A stretch of 64,000 nt of DNA. Origin: Curvularia clavata (taxonomy: Eukaryota). This document shows, piece after piece, positions 6,618 to 26,398 of this stretch. The number at the start of each line of letters is the position of its first letter. The stretch's first letter is position 1. Where the stretch lies: assembly GCA_023920165.1 (NCBI GenBank), contig CP089280.1, positions 496,001-560,000 of the forward strand. The letters are read 5' to 3'. The notes under the pieces are model-generated. The model did no database searches. It saw only the letters and a list, made by a program, of their open reading frames with translations, and was not told the DNA's origin. The position numbers and the translations under genes are program-made.

Positions 6618-8321
6618 ATGGAGCCACAACTGTCGAATTTCGAACGCCAAATCAAAGCGTTTTTAGACGCTAATACACCTATAAAAAATATAATAAATTA
6701 CTTTCAAAAAAATCCACGGTCTATATATAACGCTATAGCTCGAATAAAACGAAAATATAAAGCTATTAGTGAGCCAAAAAGAGCTAGTTTAGGCGGAATT
6801 TCTAAGACAACTTCTAGAGCAATAAGAGCTCTAAATAGAGATATACTACGCAGTCCAAAAAAACCAAAAAATAGATTATTAAACGAAAATAATCTAGAAA
6901 TATCTAGTAGAACTCTTCAAAGAGTTTTAAAAGCAGAGGGCTGGACTATAACAACTAGTCAAAAAAAGCCAATTTTAAACGAGAAAAAAGCTAAAAAACG
7001 GCTACTCTACGCTAAAAATAAGCTTAAAAAGCTTAGTAATATTAACTTTGAAAAAGTTATATTTTCTGACGAGTCTGGAATCCAGCGTGGATATGGATCT
7101 CGAGCCGAATTTTCTCGAAATAGGCCAAAATACCACCAAAATCCAAAAATATACTCTACTAAAAATACAAGTACGTTTAAAAATATTTCTAATTGGCTAA
7201 AATATAGTTATATATATATATAACTATATATATATATTATATTTTATATATCTAGCTGACTAAGCCAATTTTTAGCCCAAGATATAACTATCCAAGTTTG
7301 GGGAGCTATTTGGATAGGTGGCAGATCCAATCTAGTGGTTATTAAGACGCCAAATAGCGTAGTTAAACATCGAAATCACCACTATATTAGAAAATGTCTA
7401 ATACCATATATAAAACCGAATATAAAACGCGGTAGGTTTTACCATATATTTTTACTTATATATAATTATATATATATAGTTATATATATATATTTACTTA
7501 TATATATATATTTCTAACTAGTATATAATACTTACTAATATATAGCTATCTAGGGTGGAAATTCTAATAGAATAACGTAATGATCTATAAAGCTAGAAAC
7601 GTTTTAGACTAGTTTAATATTACGAACCTAGGAGGAAGAGACACGGCGGTTAAGTTAAAAAGCATCGACGACCAGTCGACCCAGCCATATATAACGCGGG
7701 GGCACGCATTATATAACCTCTTTAGTAGCGCATATCTAAAGAAGGGTCTTAGTAGACTTCTCGTATATAAGCTATAGAGGAATGCTCCTCGTATATAAAC
7801 CACTAAGGGTTACTCGGACTCTTCTAACTAAGAGTTGCGAACACCACAAGTATATAGAAATAAATATTAAGCTCTTATAGCTCGATATATTTAACTTAAA
7901 TTACGAGTACAGTACCTATAATATAATAGTTACTACAGACTCTATTCATAACACACTATTACTTCATCCGCGAAAACCAACCTAAGAAGGTCTTGACACC
8001 AGAAGTCTTATATTACTTCCACTCGAGATCATACTCTTAACATTTAAGCGCCATAAAATTACACTTTTTAACTATCTAGTGTATAGCCTAGATCGAAATC
8101 TAATAGAAAACGTATAGAGCTTGCTTAAAAATCGGCTTACTAAGCTGCCAAGCTCTAGTCTTGGCACTGGCGCTAGTGAGACTAGTATAAATACGTTTAT
8201 TACAGCTATTCACCAAGAGTGGCATAAAATACCACAAAAAGACATAGATAGCTGTATTTTATCTATGCCCAAACGCTATAATAGAGTAGTGGAAGCTAAG
8301 GGCTGGTATACAAAATATTAG
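6618..8321 (+). pseudogene. DD34E Tc1-like transposase; exons 6618-7170, 7276-7431, 7554-8321; exon 3 disrupted
   Basis: FSDESG motif; GT..AG introns at the same positions as in the intact copy; solo LTR and stop codons in exon 3. Confidence 0.9.
7618..8042 (+). mobile_element. Solo LTR of Gypsy family 2
   Basis: 425 bp; TSD TTTAA at 7613-7617 and 8043-8047; reverse complement of LTRs 41018-41443 and 47684-48109. Confidence 0.95.
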
Positions 8322-8819: not shown

Positions 8820-10129
8820 TAATATATTAATACTATCTATTCTACTTTTATTTTTAATATTAGTTAGCTATACGTAGCTTCTTATTTTCTTTTATAAGTA
8901 TTATTACCAATTATATTATAAGCTAAGCGCTTTTTATAAGCTAGTGTATAGCGACGCTTATTAGGCTATCTAACTACTAGTATTACTAGCGTAGCTACTT
9001 TTAGAGATAGAGTATCTACTACTAAAGCTGCTCTACTATATGCGGCGTTTCTATCTATATTATAGTAGTACTGCCTACGTCTATCTATAGTAGAGATGGC
9101 GTTTAGATAACTATTAGTAATAATAAAATATACTCTAGATAGAGAGGGATAAGATCCATTGTTTAGAAGTCTACTTAGATATTCTATTATATAAAAACTA
9201 TCTATTAGATCTATATATATACTATAAAAAAGTTAATCTTATTAATATAGTAGATATCTTATTAAGCGAGTTTTTTAATTTTATAACCGTATACGCGTTT
9301 AAGTGGGGAAAAACAGCCTATATTAAGTAGTTAGAGTAGTTATCATATATATGGCGGTATATAGAGAGTAATAATCTTGTTACTAGCGTAGTACTCGTCG
9401 AACTCTAGCGTGATATAGCTACTATAGCTGTTAAAGATAAGAAGCTAATAAACTCTAGCTATTTAAACTGTTATATAATAATTAAAGTGCTTTATCTACT
9501 TTATACTAAGCTTATCTATTATCCAGCTATTATCTAATATACTAATAGTCTAGTTAAGCAGAAGCTTATTATACTAGCTAGTCTAGTAGACTTTACTAGA
9601 TAGAATTATATATAGTAGGATAGACTAGCTAGATATATTGATATACTTAATAGCTATAACCTACTCGCGATTATCTAGCTGTATAATAACTACTTTACTA
9701 ACTGTATTAGAGCTAGTAACTACTTTTAATGTTATAATAACGCCTATTATAAATCTAGTCTTATTAAAGTTATAGATATTCTAGTTAAGAATACTATATA
9801 TTTAGCGCGTCTCTTCTATTAGCTTAAACTAGGCTATAATTATAATAGAATCTTTATAGAAAGTATACTAACTATATAATTTTCTAGTCTATTTTATCTA
9901 AAGCTCTATCTAGCTTTAGATAAAGCGTGATATTAACTTCTTACTAATAGGTTATAGAGGTAGATTTTAACTATATATAGTAAGTAGAGCGTCTACTATC
10001 TATTATACGTTAATAATATAGGGTAGGAAACTATACTAATTAAGAGCTAGAATCTATTTTATAAGAGACTGCTCTTTAATTAGTAATAGCTTATAGTTAA
10101 TAAAGACTATCTCTACTTAAAGCTAGATA
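8820..10129 (-). mobile_element. Fot1/Pot2-like family A, inverted continuation of 3545-3780
   Basis: Reverse complement aligns with 60379-61692 and resumes at the TA where 3780 stops. Confidence 0.85.
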
Positions 10130-10525
10130 ACGTGCGCCACCAGTGAGCTGGCCGCCCCACCAAACCTGACCCAACTCTCTCCACAACCACCACAATGCCG
10201 CGACAACCACGCGCTCAATTAACTTCTCGTAAAGATAGAACTAGTCTTGCTATAGCTTCTTATTATAATAATCTAAATTAATCTATCTACGCTCTCGCAA
10301 AAGTGTACGATATGCTAAAATTAACTCTTTAGATATGCCTCTGTGGTGTCCAGCCGCGATTAGAGACAGCCTCTACTAAATGAAAGCTATCGTCTATTAA
10401 AGAGCAGTCTCTCGTATAGTAGATTCTAAAGCTAGATAAACGAGGCTTTCCGCCTTATATTATCGACGTGCGACGAATAGCAGACGTTCTGCTTGCCGCG
10501 CGTGGCTAAAATCCACCTCTATAGC
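10130..10525 (+). mobile_element. Fot1/Pot2-like family B, 5' end
   Basis: TA then TIR acgtgcgccaccagtgagctggccgcccc; transposase start atgccgcgacaacc; ends at ATAGC. Confidence 0.9.
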
Positions 10526-12277
10526 TGTAACGGCGCGAGCAAGACTAGTCGAATCGGTTCCGGTGGGAAGTGTCACTCAAATGCATATGGAAGTGCGTGG
10601 GACAGTAGAAACACCTTAAATTCGGTAGACACTCATAGGCCTGGTACGAAAGGATATTAAAAATCTACCAAACATCTATAGAAGGTACCTAGTACTTATA
10701 TCTAGATGCAGGTCTTCATTAGGTCTAACCCAGCTCTTAATCAGATCTTAATAAGCTGCCCTAGCTAGGGTATATTTTAGTCTATATATAGTTATATTAC
10801 CCCCCCTTCTGGTAGACAGCTAGTCCTACAGCTATCTATTCTAGTTGTTATTCTTCTTCTCTGCACTATAGGGTCTCTCGTTCCTAATTTCTCCTAGATT
10901 TTCCCTACACTGCGCTACTCTAGATAATAGGATGCTCTAGTTCTAGTATAGCTCCCGTAGCCGTGCATATCCTTTACTTAAGCCTCTATACCTAAGCCTT
11001 AGTAACTATTCTAGTACTCACGTGGCGCTGCTACCTTACTATCTAGCCGCTAGGCTGTTTGCCTTCACCTACTAGATAGGCCTAGACGCTTTAATTAGAG
11101 CTCTAAGTCGCCGGCGATTTATTTATAGTTAGGGTCTAACAGCTATCTAGATTATATATACTAAGATTATTTACTCCTCTAGTATATATATTAATAATAA
11201 TATAGTATCGCCGCCGAGTTTTCTCCTCTACGCTTCTTAATCAAAATAAGTTAGTTATAACTTAACGCACTCGTTTTCGCTATGCCTCTTTGTTGTCCGC
11301 CTGGTGCGCTACTAGATGCGTATCGCTTTATCTGTCTGCGAGCTGTCCGCGCCTTAGCGCGCTGTTAGTTCAACATTACTTACGCCTACCCGTCTGATTT
11401 CTCTAAGAAGTGTCTTTATTATATCTAGTAGAAGAAGAAGTGCGATTCTATAAGTTTGTTTCTCTTTTCCTTTACTATTTATAGCTTAGCTAACCTAGAT
11501 AGATTTCTAAGTACGTCTTTAAGGAGTTTTACAATTTAATTAATACTATCGAGTTATATACTATTGCTTGGTATAGCCCTATAGTTAATACTAATATAGA
11601 AGTATTACTTAATTAAATTGCTGCCGCTACTTTAGATATCGCCTGTAAGGTCTAAGTTATTAAATTCTAGAAGAAGGAGCTTTTAGTTAATTAGCTTCTT
11701 ATCGTCTAGAACTAGGTCCTAAGAGACATCTAAGACAGCATTTTGGAGTTAGTTGATATAGTTAATAGCATAGAAAGACGCCTTTCGCGTCTTAAGGCTA
11801 GGTCGGCTTAAGATAGCGCCTGGGTCAGCCCTTAGGTTAAGAAGTCAGAGGAATAGTCTAGTTTATCCTCCTTCTTAGAGAAGGATAAGGGTGCGGTTAA
11901 CTAGAAAATAGCCAACGCTAAGCTAGAGCGCTCTAATATTAAGCTTTAAGTAAGATAATATTTAGAGGGTTTACTAGTAGTTATAGAGTTTAAATCTAAG
12001 TTTTCTTTATTACTAATACCTAATAAAGTTTCTATTTTTCCTTTTCTCTAAATTTTATTATTCTATAGTAAAATTATATCCTCTATATCTTATTTCTATA
12101 CTATAATCTACTTACTAAGAGAACGTAGGGGTCCTAGTTTAGTAGAATATTATTTATAGAAGAGTTTAAGCTTGTATAGGGCTCTTATAAAGTTTAAGAC
12201 TAGATACTAGATAGAATCTAGGTTATGTCCAACCTACTATACTTAGTATTTTAGATTTGAGTAGTATAACTTACTTA
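10526..12277 (-). mobile_element. Old RIP-decayed Gypsy-1 copy: 3' LTR (10526-10796), accessory-gene relic (~11282-11949, + strand) and end of pol
   Basis: Colinear with intact 12278-14029 but with dense C>T/G>A changes. Confidence 0.95.
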
Positions 12278-12548
12278 TGTAACGGCGCGAGCAAGACTAG
12301 TCGAATCGGTTCCGGTGGGAAGTGTCACTCAAATGCATATGGAAGTGCGTGGGACAGCAGAAACACCTTGGATTCGGTAGACACTCATAGGCCTGGTACG
12401 AAAGGATATCAAAAATCTACCGAACATCTATGGAAGGTACCTGGTACTTATACCTGGGTGCGGGTCTTCATCGGGTCTGACCCGGCTCTCAATCGGATCT
12501 TGATAAGCTGCCCTGGCTGGGGTATGTTTTGGTCTATGCATGGTTACA
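12278..12548 (-). repeat. Gypsy-1 3' LTR (271 bp)
   Basis: tgtaac...gttaca termini; adjacent to the PPT. Confidence 0.97.
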
Positions 12549-12562
12549 TTACCCCCCCTCCC
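12549..12562 (-). promoter_or_regulatory. Polypurine tract (second copy 19474-19487)
   Basis: Minus strand reads a G-rich purine run then TAA directly before the 3' LTR. Confidence 0.9.
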
Positions 12563-13033
12563 GGTAGACAGCTGGTCCCACAGCTGTCTGTTCCGGTTGT
12601 CATTCTTCTTCCCTGCACCATGGGGTCCCTCGTTCCTGATTTCCCCCAGATTTTCCCCACACTGCGCCACTTCGGGCAATAGGATGCTCCGGTTCCGGTG
12701 TGGCTCCCGTGGCCGTGCATGTCCTTCACTTGAGCCTCTGTGCCTGAGCCTCAGTGACCATTCCGGTACTCACGTGGCGCTGCTGCCTTGCTGCCTGGCC
12801 GCTAGGCCGTTTGCCTTCACCTGCCAGACAGGCCTGGACGCTTCGATCGGAGCTCCGAGTCGCCGGCGATTCGTTTGTAGTCAGGGTCCAACGGCTATCC
12901 AGGTCACGTGTGCCAAGACTGTTTGCTCCCCCAGTGTGTATATCAACAACAACACAGTGTCGCCGCCGAGTTTTCTCCTCCACGCTTCTCAATCAAAACA
13001 AGTCAATTACAACTCAACGCACTCGTTTTCGCT

Positions 13034-13701
13034 ATGCCTCTTCGTTGTCCGCCCGGTGCGCTGCCGGATGCGTATCGCTTCATCTGTCTGCGAGCTGTCC
13101 GCGCCTTGGCGCGCCGTCAGTTCGACATTGCTTACGCCTACCCGTCCGATTCCTCCAAGAAGTGTCTTTATTGCACCCAGCAGAAGGAGAAGTGCGATCC
13201 TGTAAGTTTGCTTCTCTTTTCCTTCACTGTTTGCAGCTTGGCTAACCCGGATAGGTTCCCGAGTACGTCTTCGAGGAGTTTCACGATTTGATCGATGCCA
13301 TCGAGTTGTGTGCCATCGCTCGGTATGGCCCTGCAGTTGATGCCGATACGGAGGTATTGCTTGATCGAATCGCTGCCGCCGCTTTGGACATCGCCCGCAA
13401 GGTCCAAGTTGTCAGGTCCCAGGAGAAGGAGCTTTCAGTCAATCAGCTCCTCGTCGCCCAGAACCAGGTCCTGAGGGACATCCGAGACAGCATCTCGGAG
13501 TTGGTCGATACAGTCAATGGCATGGAAAGGCGCCTTTCGCGTCTTGAGGCCAGGTCGGCTCGGGGTGGCGCCCGGGTCGGCCCTCGGGTCGAGGAGTCGG
13601 AGGAATGGTCTGGTTTGTCCTCCTCCTCAGAGGAGGACAAGGGTGCGGTTGACCAGGAGATGGCCGACGCTGAGCAGGAGCGCTCTGATGTTGAACTTTG
13701 A
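13034..13701 (+). CDS. Antisense accessory protein, 204 aa; exons 13034-13201 and 13255-13701; CxxC-x6-C motif, coiled-coil-like region, acidic tail
   Basis: ATG at 13034; 53-nt intron GTAAGT..GCTAAC..TAG joins two ORF-track frames in phase: MPLRCPPG...KKCLYCTQQKEKCDP|VPEYVFEEFHDLIDAIEL...SDVEL*. Confidence 0.82.
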
Positions 13702-13799
13702 GTGAGGTGACATTTTGGGGGTTTGTTGGTGGTTGTGGGGTTCGGGTCCGAGTTTCCTTTGTTACTGATACCCAATGAAGTTTCTGTTTTTCCTTTTCT

Positions 13800-16700
13800 T
13801 TAAATTTTGTCATCCTGCAGTGAAGTCATATCCTCTGTGCCTTGTTCCCATGCCGTGATCCACTTGCCAAGGGAACGTGGGGGTCCCGGTTTGGTGGGAT
13901 GTTGTTCATGGAAGAGTTTGAGCTTGTGTGGGGCTCCCATGAAGTTTGAGGCTGGGTACCAGGTAGGATCCGGGTCATGTCCGACCCACCGTACTTGGTA
14001 TTTTAGGTTTGAGCGGTACAACTTGCTTGCTAGGATTTCTTCTACCTCCCATTCTTCCACGCCTTGGATGGGAGTTGCTGGGGGCTTTGGAGGTTCTTGT
14101 CCTGGGAGGGGGTCTTGAGGATCTTTGCATAATAGATCCGGGGCGAAGACATCATGGATCCGGGACCTTTTCGGAAGGTCCAAGCGGTATGAATGTCCTA
14201 CCTTCTCAAGTACCCTGAAGGGTCCCTCCCATTTGGAGGATAGCTTCCTACTCGGACGGTCTGACGCGAGGTTCCGGGTACTTAGGAAGACCATGTCTCC
14301 CACATCCCAGTCAACAGAACGACGATGGCGGTTGACTGTGGTTCGCATCCTGTCCTGGGCTTTCTCCATTTGTTCCTTAGCTACCTTCCATGCGTCGTGC
14401 ATGCGGGTAGCCATTTCCAATGCATCCTTATGGTTGAGTTTGTCAGTGGGGGTGAGAAGGCTGGTGGAATGTTTCCAGTCCCAACTCTGCCGGGGTTCGG
14501 AACCATATAGGATGTGGTACGGGGACATGCCAATGGAAGAATGTGGTAGGGAAATTTGAGCACGATCGATCAAAGGTAGAAGTCCACTCCAGTTGTCTTG
14601 GTAGTAGGATACGAATGGGCGCAACCTCTGATCGATGTACTTATTCATAATCTCTGTCTGACCATCCGTTTCTTTGTGGTAGGCGGTTGACAGCTTGACC
14701 TTAACGCCTAGGATTCGGCAGAATTCCGACCAGAAGCTTGAAATGAACTGTGGTCCTCGGTCAGAGACTATGGTTTCAGGTGTGTGGCCAAATCGGTACA
14801 CCCATTGAACGAATAGGTCGGCCATTCCCCTTGCATCAATAGTCTTGTGGCAGGGGATGGAGATGGCCTGCTTAGATAACCGGTCGATCACGACCATGAT
14901 CATGTCGTAACCGGATCGGTCTCGGGGAAATTCCTTAAAGTCGATGCACAGGTGCTGCATCGGCCGGTCAGGAATTGGCAAAGGATGAATCATCCCTGGA
15001 ATTCGGGTCTGTCTAGGATGGGCCTTCCTACAGGCTATGCAATTCCGCACATACCTTTTACAGGTGGATTCCATACCCTTCCAGTGGTACTTCTGGGACA
15101 GTAGTTGGTAGGTCTTCTTTGCACTGGGGTGCGCTGAGGATACCTGGTCGTGTACTTCCCGAATGAGGCGAGTCACAAGGGTAGAGGTGGAAGGAATGCA
15201 TAGGCGGTTGGAATAGAGCAGGAGTCCGTTTTCGATCCGGTATCTGTCCGGAAGGGACCTTCGCTCTGCCCCAAACGAGGCTCGGTTCTCTTGTAGGATA
15301 GACTCGATCAGCTCCAGCGAATCGAGGGACATCGGCTCCGATATGGGCTCAACTACAAGTAAGGAGAAAGATTCCGCTTGGAGTTGGGCTACATAGGTCT
15401 TAGCAAGTTCGGAGTTGATTCGGTTGTCAAGTCGGTGCGGTCCCAGGAGGACCCGCGAACGGTTGTCAATTTGGGCTGTCTTCAGATTCCCCACATCTTG
15501 CTCCCGTCGGGAGAGGATGTCAGCACGAGCATTATCCTTTCCGGGGGTGTATCGGATGTGGAAATTGAAGGATGCCAACTCTTCCGCCCATCGCACCTGG
15601 CGGGCATTCAGAACTTTGGTAGTCATGAAGTATTCAAGGGAACGGTGGTCTGAGTACACGTCGACACGAGAGCGTACCGACAGCAGTTCAGGTCGCCACT
15701 TGCTAAACGCCGTTACGATGGCGAATAGTTCTTTGTCGTGTATTTCCCAGTTCAGCTCAGACCCGGATAGGACCTTGCTGAAGAATGCTACAGGACACCA
15801 ATTTCCATTTGGCTGCTTTTGGGAAAGAACGCCTGCCACAACGCCATCGGACGCGTCGGTCTCCACCTTGGTATCATACTCTGGATGGTAGTGGTACAAG
15901 GTGGGAATTGCCAGCAGTGCAGATTTTAACCTTTCAAAGGCTTGGTCGCACTCCGAATCCCATACGAATGGTCTTGAGGGGCTCTGGAGGGCGAGGAGAG
16001 GTTTCGCAATTCGCGAGTATTCAGGAACGAACTGCCTGTAGAACCCAGTGAACCCTAGGAACGACTTCACACCAGTAACGGTGGTAGGTCGGACCCAATC
16101 TTGAAGGGCTTCCACCTTGTCAGGGTCCACCTCTAGACCTTGGTTGGTCAAAATGTACCCTAGGTATTTGGTCCGAGTGACATGGAATTCGCTTTTCTTG
16201 ATGTCAACTTGGAGACCGGCTTGCCTAAGCCTTTCCAAGACCTGTTGTACGTGGCGGGGGTGGTCCGGTTCCGATTCGGAGTAGATCAAAATGTCGTCTA
16301 GGTAGACTATGCAGAAGCTGTCTAGATAATCAATCAACACATCATTCATGTAGCGTTGATATGTTGCAGGGCCGTTGCATAATCCAAAAGGCAACACTTT
16401 GGACTTGTAGGTTCCGTATCTAGTGCGGAACGTGGTGTACTCCTCCGAGTCGGGGTGCATTCGGATCTTGTTGAATGCCGCACGTATGTCGAGCTTGGTG
16501 AAGATTTTCGCCTTGTGGGTGCGGGCTAGAAGCTCGTCAATGCGTGGTATCGAATACGCATCCTTTCTGGTGATTGCGTTGAGTCGGCGGTAATCTACAC
16601 AGATGCGAATGTCTCCGTTTGGCTTCCGAACACAAAGGACTGGGGAGGCGAAGGGGCAGTGGCTTGGGTCAATGTGTCCTTTCCTAAGGTTTTCCATTAC

Positions 16701-17822
16701 GAACGTCTTGGTGGCTTCGAGTTCTTCAGTGCTCTGCTTGTACAGAGGACTGAATTGATTCGGAAGAGGTTCGGTCAGCACAATCTTATGATCGTATGGG
16801 CGATGTTCGGGCAGTAGCTCTGCCGCTGTCTTGCTGAAGACATCGCGGTACGAATGGTAAGCGGATGGAAGTCGGTCCCGAACAAGTTTGGCGTTTTCGG
16901 GATCGTCTGGCTTCATGCGCTCTTCTAAGATGCGATCGATCTCATAGATACTTGTCGTGAAGAACTCGTTTTCCTTACGCTTCATAGAATAATGGAAAGC
17001 ATTTGCCGAAATGATGGCGATACGGGGTGAAGATGTTGGTCGGATAGGGTCCGGAGTAGGGTCGGGAACAGGTAGTGGTAGACGAACCTTGGGAAGTTTG
17101 AGGCATCCTCTAATTCTTCGCATGAGAGCTTTGCGAGGACTGTTTTGCCTACGGTAGTTGTCCTTTTCCCATAGTGCGTCTCGCCTCTGTATGTCCCGTT
17201 CCACATCAGCATCGATGGAAGGTTGTTTCAACTGTACAAGGATAGGTGGCGCGGGATCATATGTTGGAGGGTACTTGGCCGGCCATACGATCCGGTTCCG
17301 GCTCGTATCAAGCCTAAGCTGGAAACGTCTTAACCACTTGATTCCAATTATGCAGTCCTGTGTCCCTAGATCCATGATCACGAAGGGACAGTTGTAAATC
17401 TTTCTTCCATCGATTCGGATATGTAACCGAATATATTTGTCTACCCTAGTTTGGACTTGGTCCTGAAATCCTTTGACTGTGATCTTGAAGGGAAGTCTTC
17501 GGATGGGGACCTGAAGGGAGCCGGAGAGGGTACGAGCAATAGCAGAATTTAAGAATAAAAAGCCTTGGGCTCCAGTGTCAACTAAGGAGTGCAAGCTGAC
17601 ACCAAACCCTTTCGAACAAAGAACGGTGGGTACTAGGAAGTGTTTTCCTCCGAACAAGTGGGATAAATCAATTTTAGCTAGATCGTACTTGTTCATGCCT
17701 AGGGCGGAGAGTTTTCCTAGGCCTGGTGGTTTCCCGCCCGGTCCTCCTCCGATAAGTATTCGTGTGCTTCTTCGAATTCTTCCTTCTCTGCTTCGATTTC
17801 TCGAACCCGAGGAATGGGGCAC
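13800..17822 (-). CDS. pol: Pol polyprotein: protease, RT, RNase H, integrase, chromodomain (probably expressed by -1 frameshift from gag)
   Basis: LVDTGA, YLDDILIYS, ETDASD, H..H..CxxC, SDRGPQF, WEGPF, WEVEEIL..YQVRWVG..TWYP. Confidence 0.98.
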   Translation of the reverse strand: MPHSSGSRNRSREGRIRRSTRILIGGGPGGKPPGLGKLSALGMNKYDLAKIDLSHLFGGKHFLVPTVLCSKGFGVSLHSLVDTGAQGFLFLNSAIARTLSGSLQVPIRRLPFKITVKGFQDQVQTRVDKYIRLHIRIDGRKIYNCPFVIMDLGTQDCIIGIKWLRRFQLRLDTSRNRIVWPAKYPPTYDPAPPILVQLKQPSIDADVERDIQRRDALWEKDNYRRQNSPRKALMRRIRGCLKLPKVRLPLPVPDPTPDPIRPTSSPRIAIISANAFHYSMKRKENEFFTTSIYEIDRILEERMKPDDPENAKLVRDRLPSAYHSYRDVFSKTAAELLPEHRPYDHKIVLTEPLPNQFSPLYKQSTEELEATKTFVMENLRKGHIDPSHCPFASPVLCVRKPNGDIRICVDYRRLNAITRKDAYSIPRIDELLARTHKAKIFTKLDIRAAFNKIRMHPDSEEYTTFRTRYGTYKSKVLPFGLCNGPATYQRYMNDVLIDYLDSFCIVYLDDILIYSESEPDHPRHVQQVLERLRQAGLQVDIKKSEFHVTRTKYLGYILTNQGLEVDPDKVEALQDWVRPTTVTGVKSFLGFTGFYRQFVPEYSRIAKPLLALQSPSRPFVWDSECDQAFERLKSALLAIPTLYHYHPEYDTKVETDASDGVVAGVLSQKQPNGNWCPVAFFSKVLSGSELNWEIHDKELFAIVTAFSKWRPELLSVRSRVDVYSDHRSLEYFMTTKVLNARQVRWAEELASFNFHIRYTPGKDNARADILSRREQDVGNLKTAQIDNRSRVLLGPHRLDNRINSELAKTYVAQLQAESFSLLVVEPISEPMSLDSLELIESILQENRASFGAERRSLPDRYRIENGLLLYSNRLCIPSTSTLVTRLIREVHDQVSSAHPSAKKTYQLLSQKYHWKGMESTCKRYVRNCIACRKAHPRQTRIPGMIHPLPIPDRPMQHLCIDFKEFPRDRSGYDMIMVVIDRLSKQAISIPCHKTIDARGMADLFVQWVYRFGHTPETIVSDRGPQFISSFWSEFCRILGVKVKLSTAYHKETDGQTEIMNKYIDQRLRPFVSYYQDNWSGLLPLIDRAQISLPHSSIGMSPYHILYGSEPRQSWDWKHSTSLLTPTDKLNHKDALEMATRMHDAWKVAKEQMEKAQDRMRTTVNRHRRSVDWDVGDMVFLSTRNLASDRPSRKLSSKWEGPFRVLEKVGHSYRLDLPKRSRIHDVFAPDLLCKDPQDPLPGQEPPKPPATPIQGVEEWEVEEILASKLYRSNLKYQVRWVGHDPDPTWYPASNFMGAPHKLKLFHEQHPTKPGPPRSLGKWITAWEQGTEDMTSLQDDKI

Positions 17823-18907
17823 TCATTCGCATAATGTCCAGGTTTTCCGCAGTTATAGCAATTGCTAGTAGTCGGTTTGCTATCCAGTGCGGGGGTCTTT
17901 GAAGGGAACCTGGGGGTATTAGAATGAGCGCGAGATTGGGTCGGAGCTGGTTCGGATCGGACTCCATAAGTGTTTGGGCGGTAGTCCCGGTATTGACTGA
18001 CGCGGGGCTTCGTTGGTGGAGTACGAGAATTATTGGAAGTGGGTTCCGAACCGTGTCCGAAAGGAGTGTTCCTTCTTTCGGTATCGAAGGCAGTAAGGTG
18101 TTGTATCATCTTGTCAAAGGAGTTGTTCCACTGGTGTTTAAATCCCAAGTTTGGAACACGCAAGGCGGGGGTAATTTTTTCCCATAAGTAGAAAAACCAC
18201 TCCGACTTCGATACGGATCCTTTGACGGCAGCACTTATAAATTTTGCCTTAAATTCAGCGAAGGTTTCCTTTTTGTCCATGAGCAAGCGGTGGAAAGCAG
18301 CGCGGCTTTCCGCTTGCTCGTTGCCGGATACGAAGTATGATTTTAGAGTAGCTATCATATCTTCGGCGTTTTGGAACCGGTCCTCCACCGAATCGGCTAG
18401 GTACTGTGGTTCCAGGTATCCCTTGGCGATACCTGTAGTATGTCCCCAGACTAGAGCCATGCGTGCGCGTTCACTCCGATAATGGTCCGCGTTGATTGTT
18501 AAGCGGTCCTCTATTGACGCTTGCCATTGGCGGAACGTAGGTTCTGTTCCATCACTAAGGTTATCAATGGAAGGGGTACGTTCTGTGAGTTTGACACGTA
18601 GCAGGTCCGGGGTTGCTGACTGGTACCTTCCGAATTGAGTTTCGGTTGGTTCAGCGATAGTCGGTGGTGATTCGGTGGAGGGGAGAGGTTGATCTGGGGC
18701 TGCGGTGTTTTGGCGGGACAGCCGTGCGATTTGTTCGTTTAGCCTGTCGATCTCTGCCCGAAGGAGGCTAGTCTCATCCTCTTCCGAATCCTCTTCCTCT
18801 TCGACGGCTGGCGGTTTGCCAGGCGTCTTCTCTCTTGACTTCGAATCTTGGAAGCGCGGCGACTTCCTGGAAAGCTCTCCTGAGCCGGATGGGGTTCGGT
18901 CAGCCAT
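17717..18907 (-). CDS. gag: Gag with CCHC zinc knuckle
   Basis: 396-aa ORF containing CYNCGKPGHYANEC, upstream of and overlapping pol. Confidence 0.96.
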   Translation of the reverse strand: MADRTPSGSGELSRKSPRFQDSKSREKTPGKPPAVEEEEDSEEDETSLLRAEIDRLNEQIARLSRQNTAAPDQPLPSTESPPTIAEPTETQFGRYQSATPDLLRVKLTERTPSIDNLSDGTEPTFRQWQASIEDRLTINADHYRSERARMALVWGHTTGIAKGYLEPQYLADSVEDRFQNAEDMIATLKSYFVSGNEQAESRAAFHRLLMDKKETFAEFKAKFISAAVKGSVSKSEWFFYLWEKITPALRVPNLGFKHQWNNSFDKMIQHLTAFDTERRNTPFGHGSEPTSNNSRTPPTKPRVSQYRDYRPNTYGVRSEPAPTQSRAHSNTPRFPSKTPALDSKPTTSNCYNCGKPGHYANECPIPRVREIEAEKEEFEEAHEYLSEEDRAGNHQA

Positions 18908-19202
18908 CGACGGTTGTCTTCGTGGCTGATGGGTTTTTGGTAGTCTCCGAGTCTCTACCTTGGCGCAATCTACGCGACTTCTCCGAAGTTAACCTGACTG
19001 CAATCAGTACAGGAGGTCCAAACCCAAAGGCTTCGGTCGGCGGGAGATCGAAGGGATCCCGCCTGTGTGTGAATGTGGGACGTAACGGTGTGAAGTATCC
19101 GGAGCGGTTCCGGAGGGACTTGGGCTTGGGCGCGGTCTCAACAAACAAGCTGCGATATTGTTTTGAAGGCCGTCACCGGCTGGGACGAGATTTTTGATAT
19201 AA

Positions 19203-19473
19203 TGTAACGGCGCGAGCAAGACTAGTCGAATCGGTTCCGGTGGGAAGTGTCACTCAAATGCATATGGAAGTGCGTGGGACAGCAGAAACACCTTGGATTC
19301 GGTAGACACTCATAGGCCTGGTACGAAAGGATATCAAAAATCTACCGAACATCTATGGAAGGTACCTGGTACTTATACCTGGGTGCGGGTCTTCATCGGG
19401 TCTGACCCGGCTCTCAATCGGATCTTGATAAGCTGCCCTGGCTGGGGTATGTTTTGGTCTATGCATGGTTACA
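19203..19473 (-). repeat. Gypsy-1 shared middle LTR
   Basis: Same sequence as 12278-12548; PBS-like site on one side, PPT on the other. Confidence 0.97.
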
Positions 19474-19958
19474 TTACCCCCCCTCCCGGTAGACAGCTGG
19501 TCCCACAGCTGTCTGTTCCGGTTGTCATTCTTCTTCCCTGCACCATGGGGTCCCTCGTTCCTGATTTCCCCCAGATTTTCCCCACACTGCGCCACTTCGG
19601 GCAATAGGATGCTCCGGTTCCGGTGTGGCTCCCGTGGCCGTGCATGTCCTTCACTTGAGCCTCTGTGCCTGAGCCTCAGTGACCATTCCGGTACTCACGT
19701 GGCGCTGCTGCCTTGCTGCCTGGCCGCTAGGCCGTTTGCCTTCACCTGCCAGACAGGCCTGGACGCTTCGATCGGAGCTCCGAGTCGCCGGCGATTCGTT
19801 TGTAGTCAGGGTCCAACGGCTATCCAGGTCACGTGTGCCAAGACTGTTTGCTCCCCCAGTGTGTATATCAACAACAACACAGTGTCGCCGCCGAGTTTTC
19901 TCCTCCACGCTTCTCAATCAAAACAAGTCAATTACAACTCAACGCACTCGTTTTCGCT

Positions 19959-20626
19959 ATGCCTCTTCGTTGTCCGCCCGGTGCGCTGCCGGATGCGTAT
20001 CGCTTCATCTGTCTGCGAGCTGTCCGCGCCTTGGCGCGCCGTCAGTTCGACATTGCTTACGCCTACCCGTCCGATTCCTCCAAGAAGTGTCTTTATTGCA
20101 CCCAGCAGAAGGAGAAGTGCGATCCTGTAAGTTTGCTTCTCTTTTCCTTCACTGTTTGCAGCTTGGCTAACCCGGATAGGTTCCCGAGTACGTCTTCGAG
20201 GAGTTTCACGATTTGATCGATGCCATCGAGTTGTGTGCCATCGCTCGGTATGGCCCTGCAGTTGATGCCGATACGGAGGTATTGCTTGATCGAATCGCTG
20301 CCGCCGCTTTGGACATCGCCCGCAAGGTCCAAGTTGTCAGGTCCCAGGAGAAGGAGCTTTCAGTCAATCAGCTCCTCGTCGCCCAGAACCAGGTCCTGAG
20401 GGACATCCGAGACAGCATCTCGGAGTTGGTCGATACAGTCAATGGCATGGAAAGGCGCCTTTCGCGTCTTGAGGCCAGGTCGGCTCGGGGTGGCGCCCGG
20501 GTCGGCCCTCGGGTCGAGGAGTCGGAGGAATGGTCTGGTTTGTCCTCCTCCTCAGAGGAGGACAAGGGTGCGGTTGACCAGGAGATGGCCGACGCTGAGC
20601 AGGAGCGCTCTGATGTTGAACTTTGA
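19959..20626 (+). CDS. Antisense accessory protein copy 2; exons 19959-20126 and 20180-20626
   Basis: Same as 13034-13701 at offset 6925. Confidence 0.82.
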
Positions 20627-20724
20627 GTGAGGTGACATTTTGGGGGTTTGTTGGTGGTTGTGGGGTTCGGGTCCGAGTTTCCTTTGTTACTGATACCCAA
20701 TGAAGTTTCTGTTTTTCCTTTTCT

Positions 20725-23700
20725 TTAAATTTTGTCATCCTGCAGTGAAGTCATATCCTCTGTGCCTTGTTCCCATGCCGTGATCCACTTGCCAAGGGAA
20801 CGTGGGGGTCCCGGTTTGGTGGGATGTTGTTCATGGAAGAGTTTGAGCTTGTGTGGGGCTCCCATGAAGTTTGAGGCTGGGTACCAGGTAGGATCCGGGT
20901 CATGTCCGACCCACCGTACTTGGTATTTTAGGTTTGAGCGGTACAACTTGCTTGCTAGGATTTCTTCTACCTCCCATTCTTCCACGCCTTGGATGGGAGT
21001 TGCTGGGGGCTTTGGAGGTTCTTGTCCTGGGAGGGGGTCTTGAGGATCTTTGCATAATAGATCCGGGGCGAAGACATCATGGATCCGGGACCTTTTCGGA
21101 AGGTCCAAGCGGTATGAATGTCCTACCTTCTCAAGTACCCTGAAGGGTCCCTCCCATTTGGAGGATAGCTTCCTACTCGGACGGTCTGACGCGAGGTTCC
21201 GGGTACTTAGGAAGACCATGTCTCCCACATCCCAGTCAACAGAACGACGATGGCGGTTGACTGTGGTTCGCATCCTGTCCTGGGCTTTCTCCATTTGTTC
21301 CTTAGCTACCTTCCATGCGTCGTGCATGCGGGTAGCCATTTCCAATGCATCCTTATGGTTGAGTTTGTCAGTGGGGGTGAGAAGGCTGGTGGAATGTTTC
21401 CAGTCCCAACTCTGCCGGGGTTCGGAACCATATAGGATGTGGTACGGGGACATGCCAATGGAAGAATGTGGTAGGGAAATTTGAGCACGATCGATCAAAG
21501 GTAGAAGTCCACTCCAGTTGTCTTGGTAGTAGGATACGAATGGGCGCAACCTCTGATCGATGTACTTATTCATAATCTCTGTCTGACCATCCGTTTCTTT
21601 GTGGTAGGCGGTTGACAGCTTGACCTTAACGCCTAGGATTCGGCAGAATTCCGACCAGAAGCTTGAAATGAACTGTGGTCCTCGGTCAGAGACTATGGTT
21701 TCAGGTGTGTGGCCAAATCGGTACACCCATTGAACGAATAGGTCGGCCATTCCCCTTGCATCAATAGTCTTGTGGCAGGGGATGGAGATGGCCTGCTTAG
21801 ATAACCGGTCGATCACGACCATGATCATGTCGTAACCGGATCGGTCTCGGGGAAATTCCTTAAAGTCGATGCACAGGTGCTGCATCGGCCGGTCAGGAAT
21901 TGGCAAAGGATGAATCATCCCTGGAATTCGGGTCTGTCTAGGATGGGCCTTCCTACAGGCTATGCAATTCCGCACATACCTTTTACAGGTGGATTCCATA
22001 CCCTTCCAGTGGTACTTCTGGGACAGTAGTTGGTAGGTCTTCTTTGCACTGGGGTGCGCTGAGGATACCTGGTCGTGTACTTCCCGAATGAGGCGAGTCA
22101 CAAGGGTAGAGGTGGAAGGAATGCATAGGCGGTTGGAATAGAGCAGGAGTCCGTTTTCGATCCGGTATCTGTCCGGAAGGGACCTTCGCTCTGCCCCAAA
22201 CGAGGCTCGGTTCTCTTGTAGGATAGACTCGATCAGCTCCAGCGAATCGAGGGACATCGGCTCCGATATGGGCTCAACTACAAGTAAGGAGAAAGATTCC
22301 GCTTGGAGTTGGGCTACATAGGTCTTAGCAAGTTCGGAGTTGATTCGGTTGTCAAGTCGGTGCGGTCCCAGGAGGACCCGCGAACGGTTGTCAATTTGGG
22401 CTGTCTTCAGATTCCCCACATCTTGCTCCCGTCGGGAGAGGATGTCAGCACGAGCATTATCCTTTCCGGGGGTGTATCGGATGTGGAAATTGAAGGATGC
22501 CAACTCTTCCGCCCATCGCACCTGGCGGGCATTCAGAACTTTGGTAGTCATGAAGTATTCAAGGGAACGGTGGTCTGAGTACACGTCGACACGAGAGCGT
22601 ACCGACAGCAGTTCAGGTCGCCACTTGCTAAACGCCGTTACGATGGCGAATAGTTCTTTGTCGTGTATTTCCCAGTTCAGCTCAGACCCGGATAGGACCT
22701 TGCTGAAGAATGCTACAGGACACCAATTTCCATTTGGCTGCTTTTGGGAAAGAACGCCTGCCACAACGCCATCGGACGCGTCGGTCTCCACCTTGGTATC
22801 ATACTCTGGATGGTAGTGGTACAAGGTGGGAATTGCCAGCAGTGCAGATTTTAACCTTTCAAAGGCTTGGTCGCACTCCGAATCCCATACGAATGGTCTT
22901 GAGGGGCTCTGGAGGGCGAGGAGAGGTTTCGCAATTCGCGAGTATTCAGGAACGAACTGCCTGTAGAACCCAGTGAACCCTAGGAACGACTTCACACCAG
23001 TAACGGTGGTAGGTCGGACCCAATCTTGAAGGGCTTCCACCTTGTCAGGGTCCACCTCTAGACCTTGGTTGGTCAAAATGTACCCTAGGTATTTGGTCCG
23101 AGTGACATGGAATTCGCTTTTCTTGATGTCAACTTGGAGACCGGCTTGCCTAAGCCTTTCCAAGACCTGTTGTACGTGGCGGGGGTGGTCCGGTTCCGAT
23201 TCGGAGTAGATCAAAATGTCGTCTAGGTAGACTATGCAGAAGCTGTCTAGATAATCAATCAACACATCATTCATGTAGCGTTGATATGTTGCAGGGCCGT
23301 TGCATAATCCAAAAGGCAACACTTTGGACTTGTAGGTTCCGTATCTAGTGCGGAACGTGGTGTACTCCTCCGAGTCGGGGTGCATTCGGATCTTGTTGAA
23401 TGCCGCACGTATGTCGAGCTTGGTGAAGATTTTCGCCTTGTGGGTGCGGGCTAGAAGCTCGTCAATGCGTGGTATCGAATACGCATCCTTTCTGGTGATT
23501 GCGTTGAGTCGGCGGTAATCTACACAGATGCGAATGTCTCCGTTTGGCTTCCGAACACAAAGGACTGGGGAGGCGAAGGGGCAGTGGCTTGGGTCAATGT
23601 GTCCTTTCCTAAGGTTTTCCATTACGAACGTCTTGGTGGCTTCGAGTTCTTCAGTGCTCTGCTTGTACAGAGGACTGAATTGATTCGGAAGAGGTTCGGT

Positions 23701-24747
23701 CAGCACAATCTTATGATCGTATGGGCGATGTTCGGGCAGTAGCTCTGCCGCTGTCTTGCTGAAGACATCGCGGTACGAATGGTAAGCGGATGGAAGTCGG
23801 TCCCGAACAAGTTTGGCGTTTTCGGGATCGTCTGGCTTCATGCGCTCTTCTAAGATGCGATCGATCTCATAGATACTTGTCGTGAAGAACTCGTTTTCCT
23901 TACGCTTCATAGAATAATGGAAAGCATTTGCCGAAATGATGGCGATACGGGGTGAAGATGTTGGTCGGATAGGGTCCGGAGTAGGGTCGGGAACAGGTAG
24001 TGGTAGACGAACCTTGGGAAGTTTGAGGCATCCTCTAATTCTTCGCATGAGAGCTTTGCGAGGACTGTTTTGCCTACGGTAGTTGTCCTTTTCCCATAGT
24101 GCGTCTCGCCTCTGTATGTCCCGTTCCACATCAGCATCGATGGAAGGTTGTTTCAACTGTACAAGGATAGGTGGCGCGGGATCATATGTTGGAGGGTACT
24201 TGGCCGGCCATACGATCCGGTTCCGGCTCGTATCAAGCCTAAGCTGGAAACGTCTTAACCACTTGATTCCAATTATGCAGTCCTGTGTCCCTAGATCCAT
24301 GATCACGAAGGGACAGTTGTAAATCTTTCTTCCATCGATTCGGATATGTAACCGAATATATTTGTCTACCCTAGTTTGGACTTGGTCCTGAAATCCTTTG
24401 ACTGTGATCTTGAAGGGAAGTCTTCGGATGGGGACCTGAAGGGAGCCGGAGAGGGTACGAGCAATAGCAGAATTTAAGAATAAAAAGCCTTGGGCTCCAG
24501 TGTCAACTAAGGAGTGCAAGCTGACACCAAACCCTTTCGAACAAAGAACGGTGGGTACTAGGAAGTGTTTTCCTCCGAACAAGTGGGATAAATCAATTTT
24601 AGCTAGATCGTACTTGTTCATGCCTAGGGCGGAGAGTTTTCCTAGGCCTGGTGGTTTCCCGCCCGGTCCTCCTCCGATAAGTATTCGTGTGCTTCTTCGA
24701 ATTCTTCCTTCTCTGCTTCGATTTCTCGAACCCGAGGAATGGGGCAC
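20725..24747 (-). CDS. pol: Pol polyprotein copy 2
   Basis: Translation identical to 13800-17822. Confidence 0.98.
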   Translation of the reverse strand: MPHSSGSRNRSREGRIRRSTRILIGGGPGGKPPGLGKLSALGMNKYDLAKIDLSHLFGGKHFLVPTVLCSKGFGVSLHSLVDTGAQGFLFLNSAIARTLSGSLQVPIRRLPFKITVKGFQDQVQTRVDKYIRLHIRIDGRKIYNCPFVIMDLGTQDCIIGIKWLRRFQLRLDTSRNRIVWPAKYPPTYDPAPPILVQLKQPSIDADVERDIQRRDALWEKDNYRRQNSPRKALMRRIRGCLKLPKVRLPLPVPDPTPDPIRPTSSPRIAIISANAFHYSMKRKENEFFTTSIYEIDRILEERMKPDDPENAKLVRDRLPSAYHSYRDVFSKTAAELLPEHRPYDHKIVLTEPLPNQFSPLYKQSTEELEATKTFVMENLRKGHIDPSHCPFASPVLCVRKPNGDIRICVDYRRLNAITRKDAYSIPRIDELLARTHKAKIFTKLDIRAAFNKIRMHPDSEEYTTFRTRYGTYKSKVLPFGLCNGPATYQRYMNDVLIDYLDSFCIVYLDDILIYSESEPDHPRHVQQVLERLRQAGLQVDIKKSEFHVTRTKYLGYILTNQGLEVDPDKVEALQDWVRPTTVTGVKSFLGFTGFYRQFVPEYSRIAKPLLALQSPSRPFVWDSECDQAFERLKSALLAIPTLYHYHPEYDTKVETDASDGVVAGVLSQKQPNGNWCPVAFFSKVLSGSELNWEIHDKELFAIVTAFSKWRPELLSVRSRVDVYSDHRSLEYFMTTKVLNARQVRWAEELASFNFHIRYTPGKDNARADILSRREQDVGNLKTAQIDNRSRVLLGPHRLDNRINSELAKTYVAQLQAESFSLLVVEPISEPMSLDSLELIESILQENRASFGAERRSLPDRYRIENGLLLYSNRLCIPSTSTLVTRLIREVHDQVSSAHPSAKKTYQLLSQKYHWKGMESTCKRYVRNCIACRKAHPRQTRIPGMIHPLPIPDRPMQHLCIDFKEFPRDRSGYDMIMVVIDRLSKQAISIPCHKTIDARGMADLFVQWVYRFGHTPETIVSDRGPQFISSFWSEFCRILGVKVKLSTAYHKETDGQTEIMNKYIDQRLRPFVSYYQDNWSGLLPLIDRAQISLPHSSIGMSPYHILYGSEPRQSWDWKHSTSLLTPTDKLNHKDALEMATRMHDAWKVAKEQMEKAQDRMRTTVNRHRRSVDWDVGDMVFLSTRNLASDRPSRKLSSKWEGPFRVLEKVGHSYRLDLPKRSRIHDVFAPDLLCKDPQDPLPGQEPPKPPATPIQGVEEWEVEEILASKLYRSNLKYQVRWVGHDPDPTWYPASNFMGAPHKLKLFHEQHPTKPGPPRSLGKWITAWEQGTEDMTSLQDDKI

Positions 24748-25832
24748 TCATTCGCATAATGTCCAGGTTTTCCGCAGTTATAGCAATTGCTAGTAGTCGG
24801 TTTGCTATCCAGTGCGGGGGTCTTTGAAGGGAACCTGGGGGTATTAGAATGAGCGCGAGATTGGGTCGGAGCTGGTTCGGATCGGACTCCATAAGTGTTT
24901 GGGCGGTAGTCCCGGTATTGACTGACGCGGGGCTTCGTTGGTGGAGTACGAGAATTATTGGAAGTGGGTTCCGAACCGTGTCCGAAAGGAGTGTTCCTTC
25001 TTTCGGTATCGAAGGCAGTAAGGTGTTGTATCATCTTGTCAAAGGAGTTGTTCCACTGGTGTTTAAATCCCAAGTTTGGAACACGCAAGGCGGGGGTAAT
25101 TTTTTCCCATAAGTAGAAAAACCACTCCGACTTCGATACGGATCCTTTGACGGCAGCACTTATAAATTTTGCCTTAAATTCAGCGAAGGTTTCCTTTTTG
25201 TCCATGAGCAAGCGGTGGAAAGCAGCGCGGCTTTCCGCTTGCTCGTTGCCGGATACGAAGTATGATTTTAGAGTAGCTATCATATCTTCGGCGTTTTGGA
25301 ACCGGTCCTCCACCGAATCGGCTAGGTACTGTGGTTCCAGGTATCCCTTGGCGATACCTGTAGTATGTCCCCAGACTAGAGCCATGCGTGCGCGTTCACT
25401 CCGATAATGGTCCGCGTTGATTGTTAAGCGGTCCTCTATTGACGCTTGCCATTGGCGGAACGTAGGTTCTGTTCCATCACTAAGGTTATCAATGGAAGGG
25501 GTACGTTCTGTGAGTTTGACACGTAGCAGGTCCGGGGTTGCTGACTGGTACCTTCCGAATTGAGTTTCGGTTGGTTCAGCGATAGTCGGTGGTGATTCGG
25601 TGGAGGGGAGAGGTTGATCTGGGGCTGCGGTGTTTTGGCGGGACAGCCGTGCGATTTGTTCGTTTAGCCTGTCGATCTCTGCCCGAAGGAGGCTAGTCTC
25701 ATCCTCTTCCGAATCCTCTTCCTCTTCGACGGCTGGCGGTTTGCCAGGCGTCTTCTCTCTTGACTTCGAATCTTGGAAGCGCGGCGACTTCCTGGAAAGC
25801 TCTCCTGAGCCGGATGGGGTTCGGTCAGCCAT
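24642..25832 (-). CDS. gag: Gag copy 2
   Basis: Translation identical to 17717-18907. Confidence 0.96.
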   Translation of the reverse strand: MADRTPSGSGELSRKSPRFQDSKSREKTPGKPPAVEEEEDSEEDETSLLRAEIDRLNEQIARLSRQNTAAPDQPLPSTESPPTIAEPTETQFGRYQSATPDLLRVKLTERTPSIDNLSDGTEPTFRQWQASIEDRLTINADHYRSERARMALVWGHTTGIAKGYLEPQYLADSVEDRFQNAEDMIATLKSYFVSGNEQAESRAAFHRLLMDKKETFAEFKAKFISAAVKGSVSKSEWFFYLWEKITPALRVPNLGFKHQWNNSFDKMIQHLTAFDTERRNTPFGHGSEPTSNNSRTPPTKPRVSQYRDYRPNTYGVRSEPAPTQSRAHSNTPRFPSKTPALDSKPTTSNCYNCGKPGHYANECPIPRVREIEAEKEEFEEAHEYLSEEDRAGNHQA

Positions 25833-26127
25833 CGACGGTTGTCTTCGTGGCTGATGGGTTTTTGGTAGTCTCCGAGTCTCTACCTTGGCGCAATCTACGC
25901 GACTTCTCCGAAGTTAACCTGACTGCAATCAGTACAGGAGGTCCAAACCCAAAGGCTTCGGTCGGCGGGAGATCGAAGGGATCCCGCCTGTGTGTGAATG
26001 TGGGACGTAACGGTGTGAAGTATCCGGAGCGGTTCCGGAGGGACTTGGGCTTGGGCGCGGTCTCAACAAACAAGCTGCGATATTGTTTTGAAGGCCGTCA
26101 CCGGCTGGGACGAGATTTTTGATATAA

Positions 26128-26398
26128 TGTAACGGCGCGAGCAAGACTAGTCGAATCGGTTCCGGTGGGAAGTGTCACTCAAATGCATATGGAAGTGCGT
26201 GGGACAGCAGAAACACCTTGGATTCGGTAGACACTCATAGGCCTGGTACGAAAGGATATCAAAAATCTACCGAACATCTATGGAAGGTACCTGGTACTTA
26301 TACCTGGGTGCGGGTCTTCATCGGGTCTGACCCGGCTCTCAATCGGATCTTGATAAGCTGCCCTGGCTGGGGTATGTTTTGGTCTATGCATGGTTACA
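26128..26398 (-). repeat. Gypsy-1 5' LTR
   Basis: Same sequence as the other two LTRs; flanked by GAAAC. Confidence 0.97.

Follow-up and report, generated by a model that had tools for sequence, protein, structure and literature searches.

It is a common view that gag and pol suffice for a long terminal repeat (LTR) retrotransposon, and the accessory genes that make retroviruses "complex" have very few understood counterparts outside animals. The question of whether a fungal element possesses such a gene is raised by a stretch of 64,000 nucleotides (nt) from Curvularia clavata (assembly GCA_023920165.1, contig CP089280.1, forward-strand positions 496,001 to 560,000; this whole stretch is called the window below). 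Here a minus-strand retrotransposon of the Ty3/gypsy type carries, in addition to gag and pol, an open frame on the plus strand between the pol stop codon and the polypurine tract. A first-pass annotation, made by a model from the letters of the sequence, took this frame for a spliced antisense accessory gene and supposed that its product might be a DNA-binding or dimerising regulator. Comparison with relatives shows that it is a real protein-coding gene belonging to the retrotransposon, antisense to it and interrupted by one short spliceosomal intron. As to what the protein does, the best explanation overall, and one whose chances are about evenly poised, is that this element-borne antisense gene encodes a regulator with a Gal4-like layout that acts on its own element or on silencing.

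A gene rather than a chance open frame

The layout reported in the first-pass annotation is borne out by the sequence. The accessory gene (Table 1) is convergent with pol, their stop codons being 98 nt apart, and about 1.24 kb separates the pol stop (13800-13802) from the polypurine tract. The 53-nt intron that had been proposed to fuse two frames into a protein of 204 amino acids (aa) has its donor, its CTAAC element and its acceptor in place. Since the frames of the exons differ and the intron closes on an in-frame TAG, only splicing can join the two.

Long open frames are easily come by on this strand, which in this region is only 16% A. Stop-free runs of at least 148 codons appear in 334 of 1000 dinucleotide-preserving shuffles of the strand that carries the accessory gene, and the length of the open reading frame (ORF) is by itself no evidence for a gene. 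A neighbouring ORF illustrates the point: an ATG-initiated frame of 221 aa at 12540-13205 on the plus strand, which extends from the LTR edge into exon 1 in another frame, is longer and yet meaningless. It has no coding periodicity, is not conserved in the relatives, and is evidently a chance ORF on an A-poor strand. It might thus be argued that the accessory frame is also an accident of composition and that there is no gene here at all. This is scarcely credible, given what the frame contains. The accessory coding sequence has a GC content of 0.65/0.43/0.68 at the three codon positions, with G at 0.42 of first positions and A at 0.06 of third positions, and such periodicity is missing from its other two phases. 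Together with three observations described below, namely 55 clusters of related proteins, an intron whose position is conserved and the presence of the gene in diverged elements, this refutes a chance frame as far as sequence evidence goes; codon periodicity and conservation are far beyond what chance provides.

A protein family with a conserved intron

A phmmer search of 1.84 billion representatives returned 55 proteins at E<=1e-3, 16 at E<=1e-10 and 2 at E<=1e-30, and many of the 55 align over both exons with 25-48% identity. Two proteins from Curvularia clavata were found with exon 2 in a word-indexed search; one of them, a protein model of 204 aa, is 99% identical and is spliced at the same junction. 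The named relatives, all of which are annotated as "hypothetical," come from Dothideomycetes (Bipolaris, Clathrospora, Polyplosphaeria, Plenodomus, Zopfia and Didymella) and from Leotiomycetes (Stipitochalara, Cadophora, Diplocarpon and Pseudogymnoascus). Clusters from Pseudogymnoascus destructans account for 15 of the 22 matches in a profile search and, therefore, the gene is multi-copy there; several genomes carry many copies. The ESM Atlas matches are only unnamed Ascomycota clusters, with scores of 0.88-0.90. No longer or fused forms of the protein were found, which is weak evidence, and a search of viral contigs yielded no member of the family. By these similarities, the accessory gene is a member of an unnamed protein family that spans Dothideomycetes and Leotiomycetes. 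A published description of this family was not found in a literature search outside of which lie most subscription journals and supplementary files.

The position of the intron has been kept throughout this family. It was tallied in the 42 of the 55 relatives that have C-x2-C-x6-C together with sufficient downstream sequence; the remaining 13 are fragments, mutated forms, or, in one case (P0038), probably a spurious repeat protein. The spliced form, C-x-P-[VILM]-P-x-[YF], spans the junction in 19 of the 42, and in another 22 a valine codon (GTN) directly follows C-x-P and the frame reads on, as happens when an ORF caller runs into an intron. P0006 is the sole deviant, and 41 of the 42 informative relatives break at the accessory intron position. 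The same phase-0 point is interrupted in three genes recovered from metagenomic contigs: by 47 nt (GTAAGT..CAG) in L005, by 48 nt with canonical GT..AG ends in L006, which has a second intron further on, and by 51 nt (GTCAGT..CTGAC..TAG) in L002. Beyond the splice signals, the intron sequences of these three genes and of the window are unrelated to one another.

Element-borne relatives and constraint on the protein

The context of the gene was tested by tblastn with the gag, pol and accessory proteins of the window against metagenomic contigs. In both L005 and L006, the accessory gene is convergent with pol and adjoins the LTR-gag junction, the same place and orientation as in the window, although the pol proteins have drifted to 78% identity (over 912 aa) and 59% identity (over 1228 aa), respectively. 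Within the window, the gene is present in four of four element copies, two of them intact and two dead. Of the 136 positions that differ in the dead copy at 11282-11949, 134 show C>T or G>A changes, the type produced by repeat-induced point mutation (RIP). These results uphold the first-pass claims that the module also exists in older decayed copies and that it is a stable part of the lineage.

As a side observation, the L005 and L006 contigs are both circular permutations of an element, reading pol 3' end, accessory gene, LTR region and gag. Such a permutation is expected when an assembler collapses the two LTRs, and the layout echoes the tandem arrangement of the window.

Synonymous sites are saturated between the window gene and those of L005, L002 and L006, and consequently identity by codon position and the pair L005-L002 were used instead. 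At first, second and third positions, the identity of the accessory gene is 0.51/0.62/0.31 for the window against L005, 0.51/0.69/0.32 for the window against L002 and 0.72/0.78/0.48 for L005 against L002; pol gives 0.79/0.89/0.45 for the window against L005. The ratio of nonsynonymous to synonymous substitution (dN/dS), a check that had been proposed at the outset, is 0.26 (NG86) or 0.28 (LWL85) for L005 against L002 over 156 codons. Because third codon positions diverge most and this ratio is low, the accessory gene is, on these comparisons, constrained as a protein in the stated frame.

Architecture of the predicted protein

Each of the motifs that had been named can be located in the protein: CLRA (aa 18-21), C-x2-C-x6-C (aa 44-54), a heptad stretch (aa 129-156) and a Ser/Glu-rich tail. 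Among 15 members of the family R20, S41, K43, C47, C54 and P58 are invariant, and C18, C44 and P56 are nearly so. Nineteen relatives, including L006, have six cysteines in the order C-x2-C, 9-20 residues, C, 6-10 residues, C-x2-C-x6-C, often with a histidine two residues before the third cysteine. This six-cysteine form is the Leotiomycete type, and it has C-x2-C where the window has CLRA, in agreement with the earlier view of CLRA as a degenerate half-site; in the Dothideomycete-type group, to which the window belongs, the second and third cysteines have been lost.

An AlphaFold2 model built with 26 sequences has a mean predicted local distance difference test (pLDDT) of 80.5, with values of at least 90 over most of aa 21-80, and a predicted TM score (pTM) of 0.60; the single-sequence model reaches a pLDDT of only 65.4. 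Short helices are predicted to begin at Cys18 and Cys44, followed by long helices at 59-80, 88-115 and 118-159. The last of these contains the heptad region, which is conserved across the family: strong hydrophobic residues occupy 0.68 of its a/d positions, versus 0.17 elsewhere. Net charge is +5 over aa 1-58 and -8 over aa 176-204, and many relatives have a Lys/Arg patch ahead of an acidic Ser/Asp/Glu tail. A prediction of two chains with zinc, run without an alignment, scored 0.03 against a mark of 0.32, which has no bearing on pairing either way.

The transcription factors of the Gal4 type consist of a basic N-terminal cysteine cluster, then a coiled coil, and an acidic region. Their Zn(II)2Cys6 pattern is C-x2-C-x6-C-x5-12-C-x2-C-x6-8-C, and the first and fourth cysteines of the Gal4 cluster bridge two zinc ions. 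In the accessory protein, a basic cysteine domain comes first, a heptad helix follows and the tail is acidic; this order of parts corresponds to the layout of a minimal Gal4-like regulator. The likeness extends to the six-cysteine relatives, with their C-x2-C...C...C-x2-C-x6-C and with short predicted helices at the first cysteine of each half, and one relative, P0059, has been named "Zn(2)-C6 fungal-type" by the automatic annotation of UniRef. The four cysteines retained in the window protein are equivalent to the first, fourth, fifth and sixth of the six, which we take to be the ligands of one of the two zincs of the Gal4 cluster. There are also clear differences. The first loop of the accessory family is 9-20 residues long rather than 6, and the window protein has only 204 aa, four cysteines, and no middle homology domain.

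A proposed role and the points against it

Given this architecture, the following mechanism is postulated. A promoter of the gene's own, within the ~0.5 kb from the polypurine tract to the ATG, would drive its transcription. It is established that an antisense intron escapes splicing from the sense genomic RNA, and the intron is therefore copied at each retrotransposition. In the protein, the basic N-terminal domain would be held by one zinc through Cys18, Cys44, Cys47 and Cys54, the long heptad helix would pair the chains, and the acidic, serine-rich tail would form the third part. The product would most likely be a nuclear factor that binds nucleic acid or chromatin and either tunes the expression of the element or shields it from silencing.

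However, it should be noted that a number of results weigh against this explanation, or against parts of it. Zinc binding, pairing, nuclear location and a DNA target are, to begin with, predictions from architecture. Furthermore, one relative lies outside any element. At the L002 locus (contigs L001-L004 represent this one locus and are 99.8-99.9% identical), an intron-containing copy at 10001-10531 stands free among the host genes Xrn1, DUF2293 and amidase, and no gag, pol, LTR, direct repeats or other element DNA were found within 10 kb of it. In addition, the accessory gene evolves much faster than pol (43% versus 78% identity with L005). Both observations would suit a host gene that was captured by an ancestral element and has since been carried along as a passenger that does not serve it. 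This origin is considered improbable, since a passenger should not have kept the same place, orientation and intron in elements whose pol is only 59% identical, nor should its codons be under constraint. The direction of transfer suggested by the phylogeny is also the opposite one. In a tree of 23 rows, comprising 19 near-full-length database proteins and four spliced genes with fragments and read-through forms left out, the free-standing copy nests among the element-borne ones, although with modest support (86/81 and 91/90) and a midpoint root only. This nesting is therefore a hint of a move from element to host, and the L002 copy may be a domesticated transposon gene.

A second group of points concerns the resemblance to Gal4 itself. 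The window protein retains only four of the six cysteines (18, 44, 47 and 54), and the six-cysteine Zn(II)2Cys6 spacing is not found in it. The Pfam families Zn_clus (PF00172) and DUF3716 (PF12511) match none of 15 members at E<=1, and P0005 and P0006 have no match to them even at E<=10. The profile and structure searches that had been recommended for the spliced protein returned neither a Pfam family nor an informative fold: Pfam searches with each of the exons, the complete protein and 15 family members gave only sub-threshold rows of coiled-coil type; the best hit of a sequence profile in the Protein Data Bank (PDB), at E 0.021, is a designed helical repeat; Foldseek has no matches at E<=1e-3 against either the PDB or BFVD; and the wide VIA-align search reaches a best Z of 7.8, with generic helical hairpins throughout. 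No solved Gal4-type structure was matched in the sequence-profile search or in the fold searches with the whole-protein model. No Gal4-type chain is listed by Foldseek or VIA-align for the whole-protein model, which is dominated by its long helices and whose N-terminal domain was not searched alone.

These results leave room for a different role, in which the protein serves the element other than as a transcription factor, by binding Gag, integrase, the genomic RNA or a component of host silencing such as the RNA silencing, heterochromatin or RIP machinery. The cysteine domain and the coiled coil would then be modules for binding protein or RNA, and the gene would be real and element-borne on exactly the same evidence. 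The failure to match any DNA-binding family, the departure of the cysteine spacing from the Gal4 type, and a four-cysteine form that would hold at most one zinc are all compatible with such a role, which is accordingly given a tentative place beside the regulator, short of being thought probable. Nothing indicates a particular partner, however, and the order of basic cysteine domain, heptad helix and acidic tail is more typical of regulators of transcription.

Finally, there are the points that concern expression. No splice joint is present in the public contigs of four runs, and no spliced plus-strand RNA has been seen in them. The protein model of Curvularia clavata may have been predicted ab initio and is thus no evidence of expression. 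A check of the 13201/13255 junction had been proposed in the first-pass annotation; the joint did not appear, and all three contigs that cover the intron retain it (X1 at 12987-14020, X2 at 13021-13289 and X4 at 13116-13294). Among the four runs, only X2 is recorded as RNA, and the contigs show neither strand nor rare forms. The retained intron is neutral, neither for nor against splicing, because plain DNA or the sense genomic RNA would give an identical picture. Within the coding sequence, the X1 contig differs only by a synonymous change at 13515 (GTC>GTT). It has one substitution and one inserted base in the 98-nt spacer, and through two more changes, at 13799 and 13800, its pol stop reads TAG in place of TAA.

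It might also be imagined that the antisense RNA, rather than a protein, is what matters. Because the two genes are convergent and their stops so close, their transcripts must overlap, and convergent transcription over the 3' end of pol could regulate the element through double-stranded RNA or interference; in Botrytis, small RNAs derived from retrotransposons have been documented (PMC8365987, seen in part). As the whole explanation this is very improbable, for it leaves unexplained why variation is concentrated at third positions and why the start, the cysteines, the heptad pattern and the phase of the intron are conserved, although it could be an additional effect of a gene that encodes a protein.

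Returning to an element-borne regulator of Gal4-like layout, the results have led to a broader hypothesis. In this model, a clade of ascomycete chromoviruses, found in Dothideomycetes and Leotiomycetes, would encode its own minimal Gal4-like factor, in which a coiled coil and an acidic tail follow a degenerate zinc cluster. Its gene would be transcribed from an antisense promoter inside the element and spliced at the conserved intron; the factor would act on the LTR or on host silencing, and at least once, at L002, a host would have adopted it as a free-standing gene. Stated in full, the model is possible, and more doubtful than not. If the protein does regulate transcription or silencing, this would be relevant to the persistence of transposons in genomes where repeats are mutated, and to the origin of host genes from those of transposons.

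Antisense genes in other elements

The implication that such a gene would be new has to be lowered. A fungal precedent is brtn of the Boty element, originally described, reportedly, in 2011 (Virology 417:248). Elements with antisense additional ORFs (aORFs) between pol and the 3' LTR have been listed from plants, namely Grande of maize, RIRE2 of rice, Retand of Silene and PvRetro13 of Phaseolus, and, outside plants, brtn of Boty in Botrytis and Sclerotinia is given in the same source as a gene of unknown function (PMC7264820, consulted in part). In the parts available, brtn is also cited in PMC8365987, PMC4227169 and PMC5987419; the first of these applies the name brtn to BcGypsy1 and states that the current B05.10 annotation lacks it. 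A survey of fungal LTR elements (PMC3248453) has no occurrence of the word "antisense." The kind of gene found here is thus already known, and the window gene is an intact addition to it from an unnamed protein family.

As far as the accessible portions of these papers describe it, Boty resembles the window element in being an ascomycete chromovirus with an antisense extra gene between pol and the 3' LTR in copies across the family. Its hosts are Leotiomycetes, whereas that of the window element is a Dothideomycete. Neither Botrytis nor Sclerotinia is among the named relatives of the accessory gene, most matches being without a name, and the likeness to brtn noted here is one of layout.

In the window, the antisense gene is flanked by the pol stop on one side and by the polypurine tract and 3' LTR on the other, which is the placement and orientation of the plant aORF-3R genes. 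These (gene 23 of Grande, RIRE2, the TRP28 domain of Retand, and PvRetro13) share with it the same position, orientation and conservation within a family, according to the sections seen of PMC7264820 and PMC11963269. In contrast, in the same excerpts, the plant elements are of non-chromovirus lineages and their proteins (TRP28, PF04195) are unrelated, and the region from pol to the LTR in Retand, at 2.9-6.6 kb, is much longer than the ~1.24 kb here. The portion consulted of PMC11963269 mentions no intron (0 occurrences of "intron"); for the antisense proteins of Retand, a role in regulation, possibly by DNA binding, is proposed there.

An antisense gene of a retrovirus provides a further comparison. 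The basic leucine zipper (bZIP) factor of the type found in human T-cell leukaemia virus type 1 (HTLV-1) is encoded on the opposite strand near the 3' LTR, has a basic region and a coiled coil, is made from a spliced mRNA and has a regulatory role. It is an unrelated protein from a virus of another host kingdom, and the window gene, unlike it, is known from sequence alone. The antisense genes of complex retroviruses are mentioned in the part seen of PMC11963269. The window offers unmutated, apparently active copies of the accessory gene, along with an alignment of the family, a model of good confidence and relatives that are carried by diverged elements or, in one case, stand free; therefore, the role of accessory proteins of fungal retrotransposons becomes directly testable.

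The host element and the rest of the window

Most of the window is AT-rich, with a GC content of 0.19-0.43, and contains a single island of about 0.51 at roughly 12-26 kb. By self-comparison, this island is a tandem array of the form LTR-internal-LTR-internal-LTR with a period of 6925 bp, and its units are 100% identical over 7197 bp. The coordinates of the features are collected in Table 1.

Table 1. Features of the minus-strand retrotransposon and of its accessory gene copies in the window
Feature	Position	Strand	Remarks
Dead accessory gene copy in older element	11282-11949	+	136 differences, no insertions or deletions, many stops
3' LTR of unit 1	12277-12548	-	272 bp; TGTAAC...GTTACA in element sense
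Polypurine tract (GGGAGGGGGGG), 11 nt	12552-12562	-	3 nt upstream of 3' LTR in element sense; read directly
Presumed promoter and 5' leader of accessory gene (inferred)	12563-13033	+	CA-/CT-rich; TATATC at 12939-12944
Accessory gene, exon 1	13034-13201	+	ATG at 13034; 56 aa; conserved MP..P.GALP start, Cys18, C-x2-C-x6-C at aa 44-54
Accessory gene, intron, phase 0, 53 nt	13202-13254	+	GTAAGT donor, CTAAC at 13242-13246, TAG acceptor
Accessory gene, exon 2	13255-13701	+	148 aa and stop; helices, conserved heptad helix at aa 118-159, acidic Ser/Glu tail
pol ORF	13800-17822	-	Protease, reverse transcriptase, RNase H, integrase, SH3, chromo-like end; open frame
gag ORF with CCHC zinc knuckle	17717-18907	-	Open frame
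Identical accessory gene copy, tandem unit 2	19959-20626	+	Exons 19959-20126 and 20180-20626
Older, heavily mutated accessory gene copy	~54700-55365	-	55% identical; coordinates approximate

The element had been called an intact chromovirus. The open gag and pol, the LTRs at its flanks, the gag zinc knuckle and the Ty3/gypsy order of protease, reverse transcriptase, RNase H and integrase support this name, and the integrase region of pol consists in Pfam terms of H2C2 and the core. The chromodomain is the weaker part of the claim: the Pfam Chromo match to pol aa 1258-1306 (E 3.7e-5) scores 24.0 bits, slightly short of the cut-off of 25.1. The minus-strand element is thus an intact chromovirus with a marginally sub-threshold chromodomain. 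gag and pol overlap by 106 nt in the -1 frame. The LTR copies at 19202-19473 and 26127-26398 are identical to that of unit 1, and short CGG-N7-CCG-like pairs within the LTR are too short to have any meaning.

Leaders ahead of the ATG are enriched in CA repeats and in TCAATCAA-like repeats in the window, in L005 and L006, and in several database proteins, where read-through ORFs display them as HTHT or SINQSIN runs. Such a repeat-rich leader may be a common promoter or leader feature.

No target-site duplication was found around the tandem array at 12277-26398. Its flanks, at 10526-12276 and 26399-27605, are RIP-mutated pieces of the same family that are equivalent to unit positions 12278-14028 and 17322-18528; therefore, the array lies inside, or partly replaces, an old copy. 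Unequal recombination or an artefact of assembly is a possible origin of the tandem arrangement. In the AT-rich flanks there are, in addition, three Tc1/mariner ORFs of 201 aa, at 6618-7223 (+), 28651-29256 (-) and 39816-40421 (+), which match the N-terminal helix-turn-helix of a transposase (HTH_Tnp_Tc3_2) at E 2e-8 to 2e-6 and are copies of a DNA transposon.

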